Part shown: positions 606 to 61,374 of the stretch, one piece after another
Numbering within the stretch: position 1 is the stretch's first letter
How the letters are laid out: each line of letters starts with the position of its first letter
NCBI GenBank assembly: GCA_037131105.1
Contig: JBAXRQ010000001.1
Location: 458,263-522,262 of the forward strand
Length of the DNA stretch: 64,000 nt
Source of the DNA: a bacterium
Lineage (GTDB): Bacteria; Patescibacteriota; UBA1384; CAILIB01
Direction of reading: 5' to 3'
Notes under the pieces: model-generated
Database searches by the model: none
What the model saw: only the letters and a program-made list of their open reading frames with translations
What the model was told of the DNA's origin: nothing
Made by a program: the position numbers and the translations under genes

Positions 606-1478
606 GTGACTACCAAGCAACTGGAGCTTCGGGCTCTGGCTATCCGTGAGGATATTATTACGATGCTTCAGGAGGCAGGATCCGGCCATACTGCCGGACC
701 TTTGGGGATGGCAGACGTCTATGCTGCTTTGTATTTCCATGTACTCCACCACGATCCTAAAAACACTGAGCTGCCTGACCGCGACCGCTTGGTCCTTTCC
801 TGCGGTCACACCTGTCCTGTACGGTATGCGGCAATGGCCGAGGCCGGCTACTTCCCCCGTAAGGAACTGTTGACCCTGCGCAAACTGGGAACCCGCTTAC
901 AAGGTCATCCCCACAACCTCACCCTTCCTGGTACTGAGACCTCCTCTGGTCCCCTTGGACAGGGACTTTCTCAGGCTGTCGGCATGGCCCTGGCCGCCCG
1001 TATGGACAAGGAAAAATGGAGAACCTACGCCATAGTTAGCGACGGTGAGCATCAGGAAGGCCAGATCTGGGAGGCCGTCATGTTCGCCGGAAATCGTGGG
1101 CTAGGAAACCTTACCGCCATTCTTGATCGCAACTATATCCAGATCGACGGTCCTACTGAGACGGTGATGCCGCTGGAGCCTTTGGCGGATAAGTACCGTG
1201 CTTTCAACTGGCATGTCATTGAGGTAGACGGACATAACATTCCTCAGATCATCGAGGCCTGCGACCAGGCCAAGGCGGTGGCAGACCGGCCTACCATGAT
1301 TATTGCCCATACCATCCCCGGCAAAGGTGTGGACTATATGGAGTACGACTTCCATTGGCATGGCGCCCCTCCCGGAATCTCTGACATCGCCGGGTCACCA
1401 CCTAAGGAGCAGCAGGCCAAGATCGCCCTGGCAGAGCTTCGTACCCTCAAGCGCACCATAATGAGCGAACATGAGTAA
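606..1478 (+). CDS. tkt: Transketolase, N-terminal (TPP-binding) subunit; split tkt.
   Basis: 290 aa. Contains GSGHTAGPLGMADV, the GHT..P motif and GDGE..EGQIWEA, typical of the transketolase N-terminal section. GTG start. Overlaps the next ORF by 8 nt. Confidence 0.9.
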   Translation: MTTKQLELRALAIREDIITMLQEAGSGHTAGPLGMADVYAALYFHVLHHDPKNTELPDRDRLVLSCGHTCPVRYAAMAEAGYFPRKELLTLRKLGTRLQGHPHNLTLPGTETSSGPLGQGLSQAVGMALAARMDKEKWRTYAIVSDGEHQEGQIWEAVMFAGNRGLGNLTAILDRNYIQIDGPTETVMPLEPLADKYRAFNWHVIEVDGHNIPQIIEACDQAKAVADRPTMIIAHTIPGKGVDYMEYDFHWHGAPPGISDIAGSPPKEQQAKIALAELRTLKRTIMSEHE

Positions 1479-2448
1479 TACCGTAGTCCCTTGGACCAAG
1501 AAATTGGATGAGCCGGAGATGCTGCCTACCCGCAACGGGTTTGGTGAAGGGCTAGTTGAGGCTGGTAAAGATCGTAACGTGGTTGCGCTCTGTGCTGATC
1601 TGACTGAGTCTATTCGTATCGAGGCTTTTGCAAAAGCATACCCAGAGCAGTTTGTAGAGATAGGGGTGGCCGAGCAGAATATGATGGGTATAGCCGCTGG
1701 CTTGGCACTTTCCGGGAAAATTCCCTTTGTCGCCAGTTATGCTGTCTTTAACCCCGGCCGCAACTGGGATCAGCTGCGCGTCTCAGTCGCTTATTCCCAG
1801 GCTAACGTAAAGGTCATTGGCGCCCATGCCGGCCTTTCGGTCGGTCCTGACGGGGCTACCCACCAGGCTTTGGAGGATATTGCTATTACCCGGGTGCTGC
1901 CCGGCCTTGTAGTCATAGCTCCCACCGACATCCACGAGGCCCGCAAGGTGGTCAAGGCCGTGGTTGACTACAAAGGGCCGGTTTATATTCGTTTCGGGCG
2001 TGACAAGGTACCTACGATCACTACCGCGGATACTCCCTTTGTCATCGGCAAGGCTAATCTCTTCAGAGCTGGCAAGGACATTACTATCTGTGCTAACGGC
2101 GCCATTGTCTACGAAGCCTTGAAAGCTGCCGAAATGCTGGCCAAAAAGAAGATCTCTGCCGAAGTGTTGGCAGTGCCTACCATAAAGCCTCTAGATGAAA
2201 CGGCCATTCTTAGCTCGGTTAAAAAAACTGGAGGCATGGTCACGGCCGAGGAAGCCCAGATAAACGGGGGGTTGGGCAGTGCCATCGCTGAGCTACTAGG
2301 AGAGAAGCATCCTGTGCCCATGGAACGTATAGGAGTGAAGGATACTTTTGGTGAGTCAGGTACAGCCGGCGAACTGATGGACAGGTATGGCCTGCGCTCC
2401 ACCGATATCTATGAAGCAGCGCTCAGGGTCGTAGCTCGTAAGTCTTAA
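1471..2448 (+). CDS. tkt: Transketolase, C-terminal (pyrimidine-binding plus C-terminal domain) subunit.
   Basis: 325 aa. Contains VEIGVAEQNMMGIAAGLA and FGESG, typical of the transketolase C-terminal section. Translationally coupled to the N-terminal subunit. Confidence 0.9.
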   Translation: MSNTVVPWTKKLDEPEMLPTRNGFGEGLVEAGKDRNVVALCADLTESIRIEAFAKAYPEQFVEIGVAEQNMMGIAAGLALSGKIPFVASYAVFNPGRNWDQLRVSVAYSQANVKVIGAHAGLSVGPDGATHQALEDIAITRVLPGLVVIAPTDIHEARKVVKAVVDYKGPVYIRFGRDKVPTITTADTPFVIGKANLFRAGKDITICANGAIVYEALKAAEMLAKKKISAEVLAVPTIKPLDETAILSSVKKTGGMVTAEEAQINGGLGSAIAELLGEKHPVPMERIGVKDTFGESGTAGELMDRYGLRSTDIYEAALRVVARKS

Positions 2449-2450
2449 GT

Positions 2451-3221
2451 ATGCTGCTTCCCGTTACCACCCTTCTGGCTAGGTCTCGTCGCGCCAAGCG
2501 CCTAGCACCCTATATCCAGGTCTCGACTCTTGAAGTCCTGGAAGGGGCTCTCCTTGCAGCGCGTCAGGAAAAACGGGATGTCATCATTGAGCTGAACCTG
2601 GAAAAAGCCACTCTTGACCATGTGGTCTTTGTGGCCACGGCTACTTCGCTCTGTGCCAGTCATCCGTCGGCGGTTGGATTGGTCCTGGCGGTACGGGCGC
2701 ATGCATCGGAGATTGAGATGGTACTGCGTCTAGGGGTACCGTCTATTCGCCCGGTATTTCCCAAAGACACGTCGCTGCCAGAACGGACCGAGTTCATCGC
2801 TTGGTTTACCAGTCAGGCCAGCCAGTACGGCATAGAGGTCGGCGCCAGCTTCTCAAGGGTGATGGGTGGAGATGAAGTACGTCACCTCTGCGACTCATCT
2901 AGTGCCTCATTTGTCGTTATGCCGGTTCGAGAAGAACAGAGAAGTCGCCGTACCTTGGTGCCGGCTGCCCTCAAGGACCTCGGGAGAGGGGCTACCGTGC
3001 CTGTGGTGGCCGATGAGGAGATGCTTACCAGTCTCCACCTGACGTCGCTACGCAAGGCAGGAATCTGCGGTCTTTTTCTGGGTGAGACCCTTGAGAAGTC
3101 CTATACTGCAGGGGTACGGGCTGGACTACGTGACCGTATGGTCACTGACCCTTCCAGCTATCAGAGAAAGGGAATGCTTGCCGTCAAGAACACCGTTATC
3201 CATTACCTACAAGCCGCTTAA
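2451..3221 (+). CDS. Class II (FbaA/GatY-like) aldolase-fold protein with degenerate metal-binding residues; possible pseudo-enzyme.
   Basis: 256 aa. From memory it aligns along its length with class II fructose/tagatose-bisphosphate aldolases, for example KAGICGLFLGETL against KLGICKINVATEL. The HLDHG, GxAHG and LHGxSG histidine positions read VLAVRAH, VMPVREEQ and VVADEEM. Confidence 0.45.
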   Translation: MLLPVTTLLARSRRAKRLAPYIQVSTLEVLEGALLAARQEKRDVIIELNLEKATLDHVVFVATATSLCASHPSAVGLVLAVRAHASEIEMVLRLGVPSIRPVFPKDTSLPERTEFIAWFTSQASQYGIEVGASFSRVMGGDEVRHLCDSSSASFVVMPVREEQRSRRTLVPAALKDLGRGATVPVVADEEMLTSLHLTSLRKAGICGLFLGETLEKSYTAGVRAGLRDRMVTDPSSYQRKGMLAVKNTVIHYLQAA

Positions 3222-3230
3222 CCGCACAGT

Positions 3231-4244
3231 ATGTTTGACATGATATCTATCGGCGACACCATGCAGGACGTTTTCCTGGAGATGGACCCCGCCAATGCGC
3301 ACCTGCACACCTTCCGCAAGGAGTCTGAGGAACTTTGTTTTACCTTTGCCGATAAGATCCCGGTTAAGGCCAAGCATGACCTTATCGGGGGTAACTCGGC
3401 CAATGCTGCCGTGGCTTTCGCCCGGCTTGGCTTCAAGACCGGCTTTTATACCCATGTGGGTGATGACGAGCAGGGAAAGCGACTTATTGCCGACCTGAAG
3501 GGCAATGATGTGCATGACGACTATATCGTCGTAGATGAGGGTAAGGAGTCGAATTACAACACGGTGATAAACCTTGAGGCCGAGCGCACTATCCTTATCT
3601 ACCATGTCCACCGTCACTTCGTACTACCAAAGCTTGAAGCTGCCAAGTGGATCTACCTTTCTTCGATGGGGGAGGGATTTGAGAAGATTTTCCCTGATCT
3701 TATTAAGTATGTCGACGAGCACAAGGTGAACCTTTGCTACCAGCCGGGGACCTTCCAGCTCAAATACGGCGCTGAGAAGACCAAGGCACTTCTTGAGAAG
3801 ACTAAGATCTTCTTCGTCAACAAGGAGGAGGCCGAGCTCTATACTGGTATTCCTAAGACCGATAACTTCCGTAAGCTACTTGACGGTATTTTGAAAATGG
3901 GTCCGGAGATCGTGGTGATCACTGACGGACGCATGGGCGCTTACGTCTCTGACGGCCGGGAATATCTCTGGCTGGGTATCATTGAAAAGGCTCCACGCGT
4001 TGAGGCTACGGGGTGTGGTGACAGCTTCTCATCTGCTTTTGCCGCGGCTATGGCTTCTGGGGAGACTCTGGCCGAAGCTCTACGTTGGGGCCAGTGCGAG
4101 GCAAGCTCGGTGATCGGGAAGATTGGTCCTCAGCCGGGTCTCCTGTTCAATAAGCAGATCAAGCACCTCCTGGATGAATATCCCCAGCTCCAGGCAGTCT
4201 CCCTGGACGAGAACGGCCGCCCGATCAATGGGCATAACGTCTAG
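3231..4244 (+). CDS. PfkB-family carbohydrate or nucleoside kinase (ribokinase-like).
   Basis: 337 aa. C-terminal ATGCGDSFSSAFAAAMASG...LRWGQCEASSVIGKIG matches the PfkB anion-hole/GD motif. N-terminal substrate-lid region is present. Confidence 0.7.
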   Translation: MFDMISIGDTMQDVFLEMDPANAHLHTFRKESEELCFTFADKIPVKAKHDLIGGNSANAAVAFARLGFKTGFYTHVGDDEQGKRLIADLKGNDVHDDYIVVDEGKESNYNTVINLEAERTILIYHVHRHFVLPKLEAAKWIYLSSMGEGFEKIFPDLIKYVDEHKVNLCYQPGTFQLKYGAEKTKALLEKTKIFFVNKEEAELYTGIPKTDNFRKLLDGILKMGPEIVVITDGRMGAYVSDGREYLWLGIIEKAPRVEATGCGDSFSSAFAAAMASGETLAEALRWGQCEASSVIGKIGPQPGLLFNKQIKHLLDEYPQLQAVSLDENGRPINGHNV

Positions 4245-4249
4245 AGTCT

Positions 4250-5218
4250 ATGGCGCGGCCACGTATAGTAGTCACCAGGGCGATACCTGAGAGCGGCATC
4301 AAGCTGCTTGAACAAGACTTTGATGTGCAGGTGTATAGGGGGGAGGGAGTGATGGATAAGGCTCAGCTGTGTGAGTTTGTGAAAGGAGCTGAGGTTATCG
4401 TTAGTCTACTTACCGATCCTATCGATGGCGAGGTACTGGACGCGGCAGGTCCTCAGCTAAAGGCGGTAGCTCAGTATACGGTAGGGTATGACAATATTGA
4501 CCTGGAAGCAGCTAAGGCGCGATCTGTGATAGTGACTCATACTGCCGGCACCTTATCGGCCACAGCGGTGGCTGAACTGGCACTGGGCGGATTGCTGGCA
4601 GTTGCACGTCATACCGTGCAGGCAGATGCGTATATGCGGTCTGGTGCTTATAAGTATTGGGACCCGAGTATTTTTCTTGGTCAGCAGCTGACGGGAAAGA
4701 CGGTAGGTATCATTGGTACTGGTCAGATAGGCTCTTTGTTCGCCACCATGTGCCACCATGTCTTCAGGGCGAAGATACTGTATACCGATATGGTCTCGAA
4801 TCTCTCACTAGAAAAATCCTTGGGAGCGATGAAGGTGTCCAAAGAAGAGTTACTTGCTCGTGCTGATGTAGTATCGCTTCATGTGCCACTGCTTGCTAGC
4901 ACTCGTCATCTTATTGGTGAAGGGGAGCTGCAGCAGATGAAGAAAACAGCCATTTTGATCAATACATCCAGAGGACCAGTAGTAGATGAGGGCGCCCTAG
5001 TGCGCGCATTGCAGAACCGCGAGATATTCGGTGCCTGCTTAGACGTGTACGAATCCGAGCCTGACCCTGCCGAAGGACTTGCGGCTTTGGACAATGTGGT
5101 GCTAACTCCTCATATTGCCTCTGCCACTGAGACTACTCGTACGGCCATGGCAGAGTGTGTAGTTCGTAATATCAAGGCGGTTCTTGCTGGTGAAACCCCT
5201 CCCGACCTTGTCAGGTAA
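4250..5218 (+). CDS. D-isomer-specific 2-hydroxyacid dehydrogenase (glyoxylate/hydroxypyruvate reductase or glycerate dehydrogenase-like).
   Basis: 322 aa. Has the GIIGTGQIGSLFA Rossmann motif, LHVPL...TRHLIGEGEL, and a catalytic R-E-H arrangement (INTSRG...; TPHIAS). Confidence 0.8.
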   Translation: MARPRIVVTRAIPESGIKLLEQDFDVQVYRGEGVMDKAQLCEFVKGAEVIVSLLTDPIDGEVLDAAGPQLKAVAQYTVGYDNIDLEAAKARSVIVTHTAGTLSATAVAELALGGLLAVARHTVQADAYMRSGAYKYWDPSIFLGQQLTGKTVGIIGTGQIGSLFATMCHHVFRAKILYTDMVSNLSLEKSLGAMKVSKEELLARADVVSLHVPLLASTRHLIGEGELQQMKKTAILINTSRGPVVDEGALVRALQNREIFGACLDVYESEPDPAEGLAALDNVVLTPHIASATETTRTAMAECVVRNIKAVLAGETPPDLVR

Positions 5219-38039: not shown

Positions 38040-38513
38040 ATGGCCCGTTACAATTCCGACAATTCAGCACCCAAGGAAAAACCCGAATTCGAGGAGTCGG
38101 TAGTTCAGGTTGACCGTGTGACCCGCGTTGTGAAAGGCGGCCGCCGCATGCGATTCCGCGCTCTTGTCGTGGTAGGTGATCGCAAAGGACGCGTAGGTGC
38201 CGGTGTCGCAAAGGACAATGAGGTCCAGGGCGCCGTCCAAAAGGCAGTCCTTGCCGCCAAGAAGGCTATGATCAAGGTGCCCCTTACCGAGAACGGCTCT
38301 ATTCCTTACGAGATCACCCAGCACTACGGTGCTTGCCATGTTCTCCTTAAGCCAGCTGCCGAGGGTACTTCTATCATTGCAGGAGGCGGAGTTCGCTCAG
38401 TCGTTACCCTGGCCGGTATTGAGAACATCCTTTCCAAGAGTCTAGGATCCAATAACAAGGTGAACGTAGTCATGGCCACTATTAAGGCCCTGAAGCAGTT
38501 CTCCCAGGAGTAA
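38040..38513 (+). CDS. rpsE: 30S ribosomal protein S5.
   Basis: 157 aa S5 dsRBD and C-terminal domain. Confidence 0.95.
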
Positions 38514-56557: not shown

Positions 56558-56956
56558 ATGCGCCAGCCCGCCCTTCGCAAGCTCGACCTCCAGATCCTCT
56601 CTTTGCTCAGCGAGAAGCCCGGACATGGCTACGCACTGCTTCACCGGCATCACCTGACGGATTCCGAAGTCACTTCTTCCCAGATGTACTATGTCCTCCG
56701 CAAGCTGGAAGGACTAGGACTCACCCAGGTAAAGTGTGAGGCCTCCTACAAGGCGCCCGATAAGTCGGTGCATCTGCTTTCCGCCAAAGGTCGAAGGTTC
56801 CTTGAAAGGGACGTTGTCATGCGGATCAAGACGCTTCGTCAGAAGTCGGTCCAGCTCTTTGAGTTATATAAGGAAAACCAGGAGCAGCTGGCAGCAAGTG
56901 ACCGCCTTATGCGTCATCATGCATCCGGTATCCTATCCCGTAGATTGTCTCGATAA
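56558..56956 (+). CDS. PadR-family transcriptional regulator.
   Basis: 132 aa. Winged-helix signature L.ILSLL...GHGYAL......YYVLRKLEGLGL. Confidence 0.7.
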   Translation: MRQPALRKLDLQILSLLSEKPGHGYALLHRHHLTDSEVTSSQMYYVLRKLEGLGLTQVKCEASYKAPDKSVHLLSAKGRRFLERDVVMRIKTLRQKSVQLFELYKENQEQLAASDRLMRHHASGILSRRLSR

Positions 56957-57575
56957 GCTTGCCTCCCGCCGGAGGCAGCTTTCGGCGCAGGCGGTTCATA
57001 TGTACGTCGACCGGGTTGCCCAGGGGGTAGTCTTCGTATCCGCGGATCTCCTCCCAGATCTGCATGCGCGAAAGCACGATGCCACGTCGTCGTATGAGCA
57101 GCCAGAGCAGGTCGAACTCAGACCGGGTCAGTCGTAAGCTCTTCTCTAGGCAGACCGCACTCCGTCTCATGGCGTCGATACGGAAGCTTCTGGTGGTGTG
57201 TGAAGAATCAGGATCCGGCCCAGAACGGTATTCCCGCTGGATGATGCGGTTGGCTAGCTCGGTGAACGAGCACGGCTCTATGAGGCATTCGTCCAACCCA
57301 AGCTCCAAAAGGCGGGCTCGTTGCAGTCCTGACTGGGCCTGAGTAAGTGCCACCATATAGCCGGTGCCTCCCTTTGACTTCCATTCGCGGTAGAAGTGGG
57401 CAGCATCCTCAGGCGAATGCCCGCGCAGCAGTATGGCGGCGTACCTATCGGTCATGGCCAGGTAGAGCGTGCGTTCGGCGGTGTAGGCGAGCTCCGATCG
57501 CAGCCCGCACTGGGAGATGATGCGTTCCAGCGGCTTGCCGGCCTCTGGAGTGGGGGAGTAGATTAGCGTCTTCAT
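56907..57575 (-). CDS. OmpR/PhoB-family winged-helix regulator with a degenerate (pseudo-) receiver domain.
   Basis: 222 aa. C-terminal trans_reg_C motifs LTRSEFDLLWLL, VDVHMNRLRRKL and GIGYR. In the N-terminal receiver-like region the phospho-acceptor position reads AILL rather than D-(L/V)-(I/V)-L-(L/M)-D, and the acidic pocket is missing. The 3' end overlaps the PadR gene convergently by 50 nt. Confidence 0.7.
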   Translation of the reverse strand: MKTLIYSPTPEAGKPLERIISQCGLRSELAYTAERTLYLAMTDRYAAILLRGHSPEDAAHFYREWKSKGGTGYMVALTQAQSGLQRARLLELGLDECLIEPCSFTELANRIIQREYRSGPDPDSSHTTRSFRIDAMRRSAVCLEKSLRLTRSEFDLLWLLIRRRGIVLSRMQIWEEIRGYEDYPLGNPVDVHMNRLRRKLPPAGGKLIETIYGIGYRMHDDA

Positions 57576-57749: not shown

Positions 57750-59432
57750 GTGTTCGATGTGCGAAAAAGTGAGAAGATCGTGAATATAGTTGGATTGTAT
57801 GCCGTACTGGCAGGAGTAGTGCTGGGGTCAATTCCTTTCGGAATCATCTTTACTAAGATGCGGGGAGGGACCGACCTGCACAAGAAGGGCTCGGGTAACA
57901 TCGGGGCCACTAACGCCTTTAGATCAGATCCACTGGCCGGGGTACTTACCCTACTTGGGGACTGTCTGAAAGGCTTTGTGCCCTGCTATGTCCTGCATCG
58001 CCAAGGTCTTGATCAGTACGCCTACCTGGCAGCAGCTGGGATAGTCTTCGGAGCCAACTGGTCAATATTTCTGCTCTGCAAGAAAGGTGGGAAAGGCATC
58101 GCCGCCCTTATGGGGGTCGGCCTCGCTCTTCAGCCACTTCTTGCACTGGTAAGCTTCGGGGTGTTTTTATTCCTGGTGCGTATCAGTAAGTATGTTTCAG
58201 TCGGCTCCATCGGTGCTATGGTTGTGGTGACCTGCTGGGGCATATTCCTTCTAGGGGGACACCATAACCCGCAGGGATGGCTCTTACTAGTCGCAGGACC
58301 CCTGGCCATCTGGAAGCATCGTGAGAACATCGACAGACTAACCCACGGTTGTGAGAAGAAGTTTTCCCTTAAGAAGCAGCCGGCGCCGGCTGGACATTGC
58401 CACAGGGTGGCCGGATTCATTATCCATGCCACCACTGATGATCCGGATAAGCTAAAGGAGAAGGCACTGGAGCTGGTCAACGGGAAGCGAAAGGCAGAAT
58501 GGTTAGTCAGGCGCATGCCCGGCTGGCTGATACGATCCTTGTTACCCTTCATTCCGCCCCGGGTAACTGGAAACACCCAGTCGTGGGTAACCATTGCAGA
58601 CGGCAGCAGCATTGAGATGATCTTCGTGTCAGTATATATGACTCCGAAGCAGATGATGCGTTGGCAGGGGCTGGCGGTAAGGAAGATAGTCAAGGCTGCC
58701 TTCATGCTTGAACGCAGGGGTGCCAGCCATATCGGACTGGGAGCCTATACCTCCATTGTTGGTAAGAGGTGGGATATGGGCGCCGGCGACGCGGTGCTGG
58801 TGCGGTTCAGAGAGTTCGGTGGTACGGCGATGATCACCACGGGCAATGCCCTGACGGTCTTTACCGGCATCCATGCCCTAAAGGTTCTTGCTGCTCAGCA
58901 AAGAAAGGACCTTAAGGACTGCAGGGTGGCGTTCGTGGGTCACCGTGGCAACATTGGCACAGTGGGAACCAGGATACTGTGCACCATGGTGCCTGAGGAG
59001 AATCTCATCCTGATAGGAAGAGAGGATTCACAGGAGAGACTGCTCGAAGCCGATTTCATCATCGTCGCCACCAGCAGTGAAGTGCCTCTCGACGAACGCT
59101 ACGTAAAGAAGGGAGCCTGCATCGTCGACCTTTCACGTCCTCGGCAGACCGAGAAGATGGAAGGGTGCACGGTGGTGGAGGGTGGCGTCATTACGGGTGC
59201 AGAAGGTACCTATATCGCCATTCCCCATAACCTGGATACAAATGAAATGCATGCCTGTACGGCTGAGACAGCGCTTGAGTGTGTGATGGGAAGCAAGGAA
59301 AGCCACGTGGGACCGATCGACCCGAACTACGCCATGAGGATAGGTCGGGCCATGGGCACACAGGGTTTGAGTATCAGTCGTCTTCGAGGCGCCGATGACG
59401 GGGCCTACCAAGGAGGTGAGAACAGTGGATAG
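57750..59432 (+). CDS. plsY: Fusion protein: glycerol-3-phosphate acyltransferase PlsY (about residues 1-205) joined to a C-terminal domain of about 350 aa resembling the cyanobacterial acyl-ACP reductase (AAR) family.
   Basis: PlsY motifs GSGNIGATN, DCLKG, KGGKGIAA and HRENIDRL. Compared from memory with S. elongatus AAR, the C-terminal domain matches along its length: GFIIHATT vs GLIGHLTS; LGAYTSIV vs LGGFTSII; ITTGNALT vs FTTGNTHT; Rossmann VAFVGHRGNIGT vs VAVVGATGDIGS; EADFIIVATS vs EADFIVWVAS; EMHACTAETALECVMG vs QMFACFAEAMLLEFEG. GTG start. The true start may be the GTG at 57780. Confidence 0.7.
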   Translation: MFDVRKSEKIVNIVGLYAVLAGVVLGSIPFGIIFTKMRGGTDLHKKGSGNIGATNAFRSDPLAGVLTLLGDCLKGFVPCYVLHRQGLDQYAYLAAAGIVFGANWSIFLLCKKGGKGIAALMGVGLALQPLLALVSFGVFLFLVRISKYVSVGSIGAMVVVTCWGIFLLGGHHNPQGWLLLVAGPLAIWKHRENIDRLTHGCEKKFSLKKQPAPAGHCHRVAGFIIHATTDDPDKLKEKALELVNGKRKAEWLVRRMPGWLIRSLLPFIPPRVTGNTQSWVTIADGSSIEMIFVSVYMTPKQMMRWQGLAVRKIVKAAFMLERRGASHIGLGAYTSIVGKRWDMGAGDAVLVRFREFGGTAMITTGNALTVFTGIHALKVLAAQQRKDLKDCRVAFVGHRGNIGTVGTRILCTMVPEENLILIGREDSQERLLEADFIIVATSSEVPLDERYVKKGACIVDLSRPRQTEKMEGCTVVEGGVITGAEGTYIAIPHNLDTNEMHACTAETALECVMGSKESHVGPIDPNYAMRIGRAMGTQGLSISRLRGADDGAYQGGENSG

Positions 59433-60450
59433 ACGTGATAGAAGGGTCCTAGTCATAGGAAAGAACTTTGGGGGAGCTATCGCTACTCTTCTCGTGAAGA
59501 ATGGCGTCGATGTCACCCTGCCCTATAGACCAGGGGGAAAGCTTCGTCCTGTCGACGATGTGCTGGCGCGAAACCTGCATACGCCGACCCTTGAAGACTT
59601 TTTTGCTACTGAGCACCGTCGGTTTGACTTCTGTGTCATTGCAACGCCGATGGCAGATCTAGTCGGTGTCGCAGAGAAGCTCAAGAAGACGAATGTGGAA
59701 ATAGGGACGTTTGTCCTGGTCCAAAAGGCTATGGACGAGGCGATGCGCGGTCCTTATGCCGTGGCGAGCGAGGTACTACCTGGTGCTGAGATCATACTCT
59801 GTACGGGCGCCGCCTTTGCTGGTGACCTGGCAAACGGCTGCTATACCCGCATGCTACTGACGCATAGGGAGGGCCACTGCAAGCCTGCAGAGGATTTTGC
59901 ACGCCTATTTGCCGGAGGCCATATCCAATGGCACTACTATGACAACTTCGAGGTGGTGACCGTTTGCAATACAGTGAGGACGGTAACATCTTATCTGCTT
60001 GGGGCGGTCACCCAGTACTTAAGAGAAGTTGGTCTGGCCAATGAGACTACCTTGGCAAACGTCGTAGCCTCAATACAGGGCGAGGGCGTCGAGATAGTTC
60101 ATGCCTTGCTTCCTAAGCTTGATCCGACCTTCTTTCGTTCAAAGATCGGTTGGATTATGCTTGCAGACATGGGTTTGTGTCAGAGCTCTACTAGCCGGAA
60201 CCGTGCAGCGGGTGAAGATGACGTGATGAGACACTTCCATGGGAGTCGTGCCGGTAGGGACCTGGGTGTCGTGGAGGCCCTCGCAAATACGGGCGTGGTA
60301 GCTCAAGGCCTGGAAAGGCGTCCCGGTGACTGGATGGAACAGTTTCCCTATACAGCATCCGGCTATTTGTTCCGGATAGGTACTTATAGCATCGAGGATG
60401 CTGCCAGGAAGATCTTCAAAAGGATTCAAGGTGATGACTATGGGTCATGA
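59395..60450 (+). CDS. Highly divergent NAD(P)H-dependent glycerol-3-phosphate dehydrogenase (GpsA) homologue.
   Basis: Compared from memory with E. coli GpsA, similarity runs along the length: VLVIGKNFGGAIATLLVKNG vs VIGAGSYGTALAITLARNG; DPTFF...ADMGLCQSSTSRNR vs [26 protein letters not shown]. The GxGxxG motif is altered to GKNFGG, and the GGAVKNV catalytic Lys region reads CNTVRTV. The probable start is the GTG at 59425, preceded by AAGGAGG, which overlaps the upstream gene by 8 nt. Confidence 0.55.
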   Translation: MTGPTKEVRTVDRRDRRVLVIGKNFGGAIATLLVKNGVDVTLPYRPGGKLRPVDDVLARNLHTPTLEDFFATEHRRFDFCVIATPMADLVGVAEKLKKTNVEIGTFVLVQKAMDEAMRGPYAVASEVLPGAEIILCTGAAFAGDLANGCYTRMLLTHREGHCKPAEDFARLFAGGHIQWHYYDNFEVVTVCNTVRTVTSYLLGAVTQYLREVGLANETTLANVVASIQGEGVEIVHALLPKLDPTFFRSKIGWIMLADMGLCQSSTSRNRAAGEDDVMRHFHGSRAGRDLGVVEALANTGVVAQGLERRPGDWMEQFPYTASGYLFRIGTYSIEDAARKIFKRIQGDDYGS

Positions 60451-60582
60451 AGATGTGAAAGAGAAAAGGGAGGTGATTACGCCCCCGGGTATATTCCCGG
60501 GGGCACACTTGTTTTACAGGGGTATACTCGCGTTGCTTGAAACCAGTTATACTATTATCGAACGCACCACTAATTCCTCCCT

Positions 60583-61374
60583 ATGAGCGATACCGATCAC
60601 CTTCATAAGCAGCTTGCCGAAAAGGATGCCGAGATAGCCGAACTTAAGGCTGAGGCCCAGGAGAACAAACGCCTGCGCGAACTGGACGAAATGAAGAGCA
60701 CCTTTGTCTCCACCGCCTCCCACCAGCTTCGTACCCCGCTTTCAGTCATCAAGTGGGTGCTGTCAGTACTGGAGTCAGATACCGAGATCAAGAAGAACCC
60801 CAGCAGCAGTCAGATGGTCAGTCAGGCCTCCCAAGGCGTGGATCGCATCGTGGACGTGGTAAACGACCTTCTGAATCTGACAAGAATCAAGGACGGCCGT
60901 CTTCCCTTCAATGCTGAGCCCACCGAACCCAGCGTGCTACTGGAACAGTCGGCCAAGGAGCGCGAGGCCCTGGCAGCCAGTCGGGAGATTGCTTACTCCT
61001 TCAAGATCGAGCCGAACATGCCCAAGTGCCAGCTTGACCCCATCCTGGTGAAAGAGGCCATGCGCAACCTGCTTAATAATGCCTTTGACTATAGTGGCGA
61101 AAAGGGGAAGGTCTCAGTCACCGCCGCGGTAAAGGATGACGACCTTACTATCGTTGTTACAAACACCGGGCCCGGCATCCTCAAGGAGGAGCATGAGAAG
61201 ATCTTTGAGCCGTTCTTCAGATCACCCAAGGCCCTGCAGCTGCATCCCGACGGCAGTGGACTAGGCTTATACCTTACCAAGGCTATCGTCACTGAGCACG
61301 GTGGCACTGTCAGCTTTACCAGCGAGCCGGATAAGGAGACTGTCTTTACGGTGAGTTTCCCCATGAAGAAATAG
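60583..61374 (+). CDS. Cytoplasmic histidine kinase with no sensor or TM domain.
   Basis: 263 aa. A short N-terminal coiled coil, the H-box STASHQLRTPL, and HATPase_c N, G1 and G2 boxes (NLLNNAFDYS, GSGLGLYL). Confidence 0.8.
   Translation: MSDTDHLHKQLAEKDAEIAELKAEAQENKRLRELDEMKSTFVSTASHQLRTPLSVIKWVLSVLESDTEIKKNPSSSQMVSQASQGVDRIVDVVNDLLNLTRIKDGRLPFNAEPTEPSVLLEQSAKEREALAASREIAYSFKIEPNMPKCQLDPILVKEAMRNLLNNAFDYSGEKGKVSVTAAVKDDDLTIVVTNTGPGILKEEHEKIFEPFFRSPKALQLHPDGSGLGLYLTKAIVTEHGGTVSFTSEPDKETVFTVSFPMKK

Follow-up and report, generated by a model that had tools for sequence, protein, structure and literature searches.

The gpsA-like gene and its homologues

Near the 3′ end of the window (i.e., the whole 64-kb stretch of contig JBAXRQ010000001.1 analysed in this work) two genes overlap on the forward strand. 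The first encodes a PlsY domain fused to a homologue of acyl-acyl carrier protein (ACP) reductase (AAR), and the second a protein listed in GenBank as ‘hypothetical protein’ (MEI6477907.1, locus tag WCO52_02875). This second gene is a member of a deep and distinct clade, here called R-type, in the superfamily of the NAD(P)H-dependent glycerol-3-phosphate (G3P) dehydrogenases (GpsA); it is a small clade of tiny-genome bacteria of the kind found in the Candidate Phyla Radiation (CPR), and no description of it was found in the literature. The features of the locus are as follows:

57750 to 59432, forward strand: PlsY-AAR-like fusion gene, 560 amino acids, recognised by Pfam, TIGR and A4 profile matches (A4 being a profile of the AAR-like domain)
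59410 to 59416, forward strand: Shine-Dalgarno sequence AAGGAGG, 8 nt 5′ of the GTG start and within the 3′ end of the upstream gene
59425 to 59432, forward strand: 8-nt stop/start overlap between the GTG start of the gpsA-like gene and the upstream TAG (59430-59432), suggestive of translational coupling
59425 to 60450, forward strand: R-type GpsA-like gene, 341 amino acids, GTG start and TGA stop, supported by ORF, profile and fold evidence
60481 to 60514, forward strand: terminator-like hairpin with a T-rich tail, 31 nt past the gpsA-like stop, with a perfect 9-bp all-GC stem (GCCCCCGGG/CCCGGGGGC)

An earlier note on this stretch had set the limits of the open reading frame (ORF) at 59395-60450. 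The frame is indeed open from an ATG at 59395; the start used in both the JGI and the NCBI gene calls is the GTG at 59425. The GTG start behind a perfect AAGGAGG and the 8-nt overlap with the stop of the fusion gene, both described in that note, are there as it had them. The hairpin is probably an intrinsic terminator marking the end of a two-gene operon, and the ORF of 50-62 amino acids called across it (60398-60586) is probably spurious.

Taken alone, the window protein matches the Pfam model NAD_Gly3P_dh_N (PF01210) at E 2.4e-4 and 21.6 bits, the gathering cut-off of the model being 23.1 bits, and the best NCBIfam GpsA model at 25.5 bits, for a cut-off of 202. The Pfam search gave no PF07479 match in it, phmmer against the PDB returned nothing at E≤10, and a word-indexed search of 5.8 billion proteins with the single sequence matched only the protein itself. 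Repeated with the family alignment (8000 candidates scored), the word-indexed search retrieved two clade members together with canonical GpsAs, and HMMER, run exhaustively over 1.84 billion cluster representatives, gave 24 matches, some 20 of them full-length (325-386 amino acids) at approximately 30% identity.

The alignment of these full-length relatives (A1) was used as the family profile. Against the PDB it matched Coxiella GpsA (3k96) over its full length at E 1.6e-35, followed, again full-length, by the enzymes of Thermotoga (1z82, 2e-27), Leishmania (1evy, 4e-26) and Archaeoglobus (1txg, 6e-26), and hhalign aligned the family profile to an alignment of canonical GpsAs over 325 columns with 99.94% probability (E 1e-36). 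In addition, GpsA models are the best NCBIfam match for 21 of 21 clade members, the best of these matches having an E of 4.7e-29, and the NCBIfam GpsA cut-off is reached by none of them. The collinearity with NAD(P)H-dependent G3P dehydrogenase claimed in the earlier note is thereby borne out, and profile searches, including the profile-profile comparison it had proposed, do find GpsA and the 6-phosphogluconate dehydrogenase (6PGDH) fold. We regard the homology of the gene to GpsA as settled. Mean identity of the window protein is 26% to clade members and 17% to canonical GpsAs; in a neighbour-joining tree the clade stands apart from the canonical sample, with the window protein on the longest branch, and the latter is the sole clade member missed by an HMM of canonical GpsAs at E<1e-3.

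The AlphaFold2 model of the window protein, built on A1 (pLDDT 89, pTM 0.89), has the predicted two-domain fold of GpsA, i.e., an N-terminal Rossmann domain and a C-terminal helical 6PGDH-like domain. When the model was compared to the PDB with Foldseek, ranks 1-26 were exclusively G3P dehydrogenases (TM 0.66-0.75), so the structural check suggested in the earlier note points the same way as the profiles; the next structural class is that of the ketopantoate reductases, at TM ~0.52. Because of the ~20 homologues, the confident fold and the conserved synteny (see below), the gpsA-like gene is a genuine gene and not a chance ORF.

These comparisons also bear on the idea that the protein is some other 6PGDH-fold oxidoreductase (of the ketopantoate reductase, 3-hydroxyacid dehydrogenase or opine dehydrogenase type) merely resembling GpsA. 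The ketopantoate reductases PanE/ApbA do share with it a Rossmann domain followed by a helical C-terminal domain, weak Pfam ApbA matches are seen in 16 of the 21 members, and the A1 profile finds ketopantoate reductases in the PDB, mostly through the N-terminal Rossmann part. However, the latter matches are far weaker (only ~1e-8), whereas those to GpsA extend over the full length and surpass them by more than 25 orders of magnitude, and the structural resemblance drops from a TM of 0.7 for G3P dehydrogenases to one of 0.5. The SRN phosphate clamp, which PanE/ApbA do not have, and the ADL motif, both GpsA-specific, are present in the clade, and an identity of this sort seems barely credible.

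The active site of the R-type clade

The positions that are invariant in the A1 alignment coincide with the active-site motifs of GpsA. Residues were mapped by HMMER alignment to the Leishmania G3P dehydrogenase (GPDH; K125, K210, D263, T267 and R274 by counting) and by aligning 22 clade members together with nine canonical GpsAs; the mapping places the following elements in the window gene:

59458 to 59475, forward strand: degenerate dinucleotide-binding motif GKNFGG, residues 12-17, with the second Gly of GxGxxG changed to Asn
59725 to 59727, forward strand: K101, counterpart of K120 in human GPD1 and of K125 in Leishmania, proton donor/oxyanion hole, invariant in the family
59977 to 59982, forward strand: R185-T186 (R185 codon 59977-59979), replacing the canonical K204-N205 (‘KN’ to ‘RT’)
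60166 to 60201, forward strand: block ADMGLCQSSTSRN, with D248, C252 and S257-R258-N259, holding the equivalents of D260 and R269/N270, the canonical T264 being missing

The weight of each of these positions can be judged from mutants of human GPDH, where the loss of transition-state stabilisation amounts to 9.1 kcal/mol in R269A, 6.5 in D260G, 5.6 in N270A and 5.3 in K120A, with smaller losses in K204A (3.1) and Q295A (2.5); K120 and K204 are the two cations of the oxyanion hole, and N205 and T264 merely support the network (PMC9119304). T264 does so by linking D260 and K204, in a hydrogen-bond chain that runs K120-D260-T264-K204.

The phosphodianion clamp of the human enzyme (R269/N270; Leishmania R274/N275) is found in the window as R258/N259, within an S257-R258-N259 stretch that is near-invariant in the clade. 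Human D260 (Leishmania D263) is D248, conserved in at least 90% of the clade, and the Lys120/Asp260 pair, by which dihydroxyacetone phosphate (DHAP) is bound at its C1-OH and C2=O, is kept in the window as K101/D248. The position of human K204 (Leishmania K210), on the other hand, is occupied by Arg in 22 of 22 clade members, as opposed to Lys in nine of nine canonical sequences. That of N205 (Leishmania N211) is T186 in the window and Thr in most members, and T264 (Leishmania T267) is without counterpart in the clade, where ‘ADLxLC’ stands for the canonical ‘GDLxxTC’ or ‘DLxxT(C/A)’ and the canonical Thr falls within an insert relative to the clade profile. In other words, the four energetically dominant residues are retained in the clade, the fifth position still carries a cation, and two residues of the second shell are gone. 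Further signatures set it apart from canonical enzymes, i.e., GAGGFG (canonical GxGxWG), QKG ((T/A)KG), TGAAFA (SGPSFA) and VVE-(A/S/C) (AEG).

Since Arg is fixed in all 22 clade members, the Lys-to-Arg change is a trait of the subfamily and not the decay of one fast-evolving gene. The pattern of conservation in the alignments speaks for a DHAP/G3P site that works and is maintained by selection, and against a decayed one. Of the two options offered by the earlier note, a fast-evolving genuine enzyme or a paralogue with changed function, the former is favored because the four residues contributing most to catalysis are all retained. That note had correctly read CNTVRTV in place of GGAVKNV (with R185 as the Arg) and the SRNR block (S257-R258-N259-R260). 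Its ‘G.GDL..T’ motif holds for the Asp only, the window reading ‘LADMGLC’ without the Thr. The conservation check that it called for shows the equivalents of K120, D260 and R269/N270 kept, K204 turned to Arg and T264 missing.

Seen against the known enzymes, the window gene resembles bacterial GpsA (EC 1.1.1.94; e.g., Coxiella 3k96, Thermotoga 1z82) in length, two-domain fold, collinear motifs, the equivalents of K120, D260 and R269-N270, and genomic link to G3P acylation, but differs from it by its low identity (17-19%), its motif changes, the absent Thr of ‘LTC’ and its scores under the curated cut-offs. To the eukaryotic cytosolic GPDHs (human GPD1 6e90, Leishmania 1evy) it is linked by the clamp, as R258/N259, and by the cationic oxyanion hole, as K101/R185, although the second cation is Arg, not Lys, and the K120-D260-T264-K204 chain has no Thr link.

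The window copy has peculiarities of its own. Its GKNFGG loop, which the earlier note rightly gave in place of GxGxxG, is one residue shorter than the GAGGFG of the family and keeps the first and last Gly (G12 and G17); the protein also reads QKA for the family QKG, and CTGAAFA for FTGAAFA. To judge from the motifs, these changes could weaken dinucleotide binding, and the window copy, more derived than any other clade member, may catalyse its reaction more slowly or bind its cofactor differently.

Pushed further, these peculiarities would make of it a decaying or catalytically dead remnant (a pseudoenzyme) in this organism. The loss of the second Gly of GxGxxG and of the Gly of QKG would fit such an end, as would the longest branch of the family tree, the failure of the canonical GpsA HMM to find this one member of the clade, and the derived state of the partner domains (PlsY His92 to Ala and an AAR deletion of ~28 amino acids, both described below). 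Even so, the frame is intact and is served by a perfect Shine-Dalgarno sequence, a conserved 8-nt coupling and a terminator, every family-invariant residue is kept, and the predicted fold is confident. The GxRFGG form of the motif is not unique either, as a similar shortened version, GTRFGG, is found in another clade member (P0046), and the identical protein sequence was found in an independent metagenome. A dead enzyme is, on this balance, quite improbable.

The PlsY-AAR fusion and the conserved module

The PlsY domain of the upstream gene covers residues ~24-197 (PF02660, E 1.2e-38), and its C-terminal domain (residues ~234-555; nt ~58410-59411) matches the TIGR04058 acyl-ACP reductase model and the N-terminal reductase region of PigE. 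The A4 profile matches the AAR of Synechococcus elongatus (6jzq) at E 2e-58 over residues 45-335, and Cys294, the catalytic residue of AAR, falls on an invariant Cys of A4, which in the window is C503 in ‘HACTAE’ (codon 59256-59258). Judging by these matches, the fusion partner of PlsY is a complete homologue of acyl-ACP reductase. The ‘two-gene G3P-synthesis and acylation module’ of the earlier note therefore has its two genes but three functions, the AAR-like one included.

Both domains of the fusion deviate from their relatives at one point. The AAR-like domain is without some 28 residues of the nucleotide-binding domain (~59010-59050, between ‘LILIGREDSQ’ and ‘ERLLEADF’), which are present in eight of eight aligned relatives. 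The PlsY domain reads ‘GANWS’ (58050-58064), with Ala at the position of His92 of Aquifex PlsY, where Gly-His is kept in all ten other aligned PlsYs (five from module loci and five from unrelated fusions). His92 is 97.8% conserved and binds acyl-phosphate, and the H92A mutant is left with ~17% of the activity (PMC5700162).

No description of PlsY-AAR fusions was found in the literature. They also occur, at 26-29% identity, in Armatimonadota, whose fusion loci have no gpsA-like neighbor. In three of these (L001, L002 and L004) the fusion is preceded by two proteins of ~180 amino acids and followed by one of ~650 amino acids, all conserved and without Pfam match, which could be further parts of that system. 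A candidate fusion of PlsY directly to GpsA (P0030) was set aside as a Rosetta stone, as only ~35 residues of a canonical GpsA N-terminus follow its PlsY and it is probably a miscalled pair of neighbors.

The order plsY, AAR-like, gpsA-like, with the AAR-like part fused or separate, is found in eight of ten distinct loci, the window included. Outside the window it is complete in L006, L007 (identical to L017), L009/L010, L011/L012, L019 and L020, with PlsY and AAR fused in L011/L012 as they are in the window, and it is partial in L018, whose contig breaks off within the AAR-like gene. The AAR-like and gpsA-like genes share 8 nt in the window, in L007 and in L009; the overlap amounts to 11 nt in L018, 4 nt in L019 and a single nucleotide in L011, and a short gap separates the two genes in L006 and L020. 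At the five junctions displayed (window, L006, L007, L009 and L011), the 3′ end of the upstream gene contains motifs resembling the Shine-Dalgarno sequence. The tight coupling and functional pairing with PlsY that the earlier note had supposed thus find support in these overlaps and in the gene order of seven other loci. In two further lineages, L013/L015 (a metagenome-assembled genome titled Candidatus Saccharibacteria) and L016, the R-type gene stands alone between ychF and rpsF-ssb, i.e., among housekeeping genes, as an ordinary gpsA would. A related-locus search with a six-sequence alignment gave one genome locus (of the Saccharibacteria assembly) and four metagenome loci.

This arrangement can be read in more than one way. 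In the module the R-type gene comes directly after the AAR-like gene and never directly after plsY, and overlaps the former in six of the eight module loci, as might be expected of a specialised paralogue that serves the AAR-like enzyme as its own redox partner instead of being a housekeeping supplier of G3P. Such a protein could exchange NAD(P)(H) with the AAR-like domain, for instance with the oxidation of an aldehyde driving that of DHAP to G3P or the other way round, or its substrate could be another small phospho-ketone or alcohol. The remodelling of the active site throughout the clade (Arg for K204 in every member, Thr for N205 in most, no T264, TGAAFA for SGPSFA and E-A/S/C for EG) and the failure of every clade member to reach the curated GpsA cut-offs would agree with that. 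But the conserved clamp and the conserved Lys-Asp pair for the C1-OH fit DHAP/G3P itself, the R-type genes of the Saccharibacteria-type loci are found by themselves in a housekeeping context, and the PlsY-AAR fusions of Armatimonadota do without such a neighbor. We consider the specialised paralogue doubtful, if the most serious of the alternatives.

The interpretation that we favor, as a fairly probable one, is that the R-type protein is an NAD(P)H-dependent DHAP reductase giving sn-G3P and supplying PlsY with it. Within the two-domain GpsA fold, the Arg-Asn clamp and the Lys-Asp pair would hold and polarise DHAP, with Arg in place of Lys as the cation at the second position of the oxyanion hole, so that the charge is kept. 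The gene appears to be co-transcribed and translationally coupled with the PlsY-AAR-like fusion, in an arrangement conserved across divergent small-genome bacteria, and its product, G3P, would be passed to PlsY and acylated there with acyl-phosphate. The operon would then consist of PlsY plus the supplier of its glycerol-phosphate substrate, and the AAR-like domain would probably supply the acyl substrate. A G1P-forming reaction, of inverted stereochemistry, was set aside, since the clamp residues and the Lys-Asp pair for the C1-OH appear to occupy their canonical positions.

Several observations weigh against this DHAP reductase. The window protein is under every curated threshold (21.6 bits for 23.1 in Pfam, and 25.5 for a far higher 202 in NCBIfam), its GxGxxG motif is missing the second Gly and its QKG reads QKA, and two residues of the conserved hydrogen-bond network are affected in the clade, N205 being altered in most members and T264 missing. 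With these network changes, and with Arg for K204 in every member, substrate or kinetics may differ from those of the studied enzymes. In addition, the PlsY partner lacks the acyl-phosphate-binding His92.

The rest of the 64-kb window contains no other GpsA-like ORF and no canonical gpsA, plsX, plsC or fab gene; its remaining genes are housekeeping ones (gyrAB, infB, obg, rpoBC, a ribosomal-protein operon, pheST and leuS). In the ribosomal-protein operon, the gene for S5 (38040-38513) is directly followed by that for L15 (38515-38946), with no L30 gene between them. Together with the 949-kb length of the source contig and the Saccharibacteria relative, this gene order would fit an organism of the CPR/Patescibacteria kind. 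The plsY/gpsA-like operon is flanked upstream by a PadR-like gene (56558-56956, forward strand) and an OmpR-type response regulator (56907-57575, reverse strand), and just downstream by a small soluble HisKA/HATPase histidine kinase (60583-61374); in L007 a histidine kinase lies ~5 kb upstream of plsY. At the start of the window (606-5218) lies a compact sugar-phosphate cluster from which the GpsA-like enzyme could receive DHAP. It comprises a split transketolase, whose N- and C-terminal halves have a gene each, a weak class-II aldolase-like ORF, a PfkB kinase and a D-2-hydroxyacid dehydrogenase.

A candidate source of acyl-phosphate

In the PlsX/PlsY/GpsA pathway to lysophosphatidate, for which Firmicutes are the paradigm, PlsY and a G3P-forming dehydrogenase also serve a single pathway, here brought together in one operon; the difference is that no plsX lies beside plsY here, and an AAR homologue with its catalytic Cys stands between plsY and the gpsA-like gene. 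CPR genomes have been noted to encode PlsY and PlsC while lacking PlsX and the ACP machinery, and the source of their acyl-phosphate has been asked (Probst et al. 2020, PMC7242380). The AAR homologue, with a Cys able to form thioesters and a gene fused to or overlapping plsY, is a possible answer, i.e., a candidate acyl-phosphate source of the CPR bacteria that have no PlsX.

The phosphorolysis of an acyl-Cys in glyceraldehyde-3-phosphate dehydrogenase (GAPDH) and in aspartate-semialdehyde dehydrogenase (ASADH) is established chemistry. By analogy with it, it is hard not to speculate that the whole operon might be a self-contained lysophosphatidate synthase, independent of PlsX and ACP. Cys503 would be acylated either from a scavenged fatty aldehyde, with reduction of NAD(P)+, or from an acyl thioester; phosphorolysis in the manner of GAPDH and ASADH would release acyl-phosphate straight to the fused PlsY; and the coupled R-type GpsA would spend that NAD(P)H on the reduction of DHAP to G3P. 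The net reaction, aldehyde plus DHAP to lysophosphatidate, would be redox-neutral. We put this forward as a tentative scheme, and an unlikely one as it stands.

As far as sequence comparison goes, a hypothetical protein of GenBank very probably makes the G3P from which a CPR-like bacterium builds its phospholipids. To our knowledge, all GPDH/GpsA enzymes studied use Lys204 where the R-type clade has Arg, and this replacement offers a natural experiment on the ‘cationic oxyanion hole’ as a model of how GPDH works. Of wider value than the gene alone, the plsY/AAR-like/gpsA-like module is a concrete candidate for the open question of acyl-phosphate in the CPR. If the operon were indeed a lysophosphatidate synthase of the kind outlined above, it would answer how CPR bacteria without PlsX get their acyl-phosphate.

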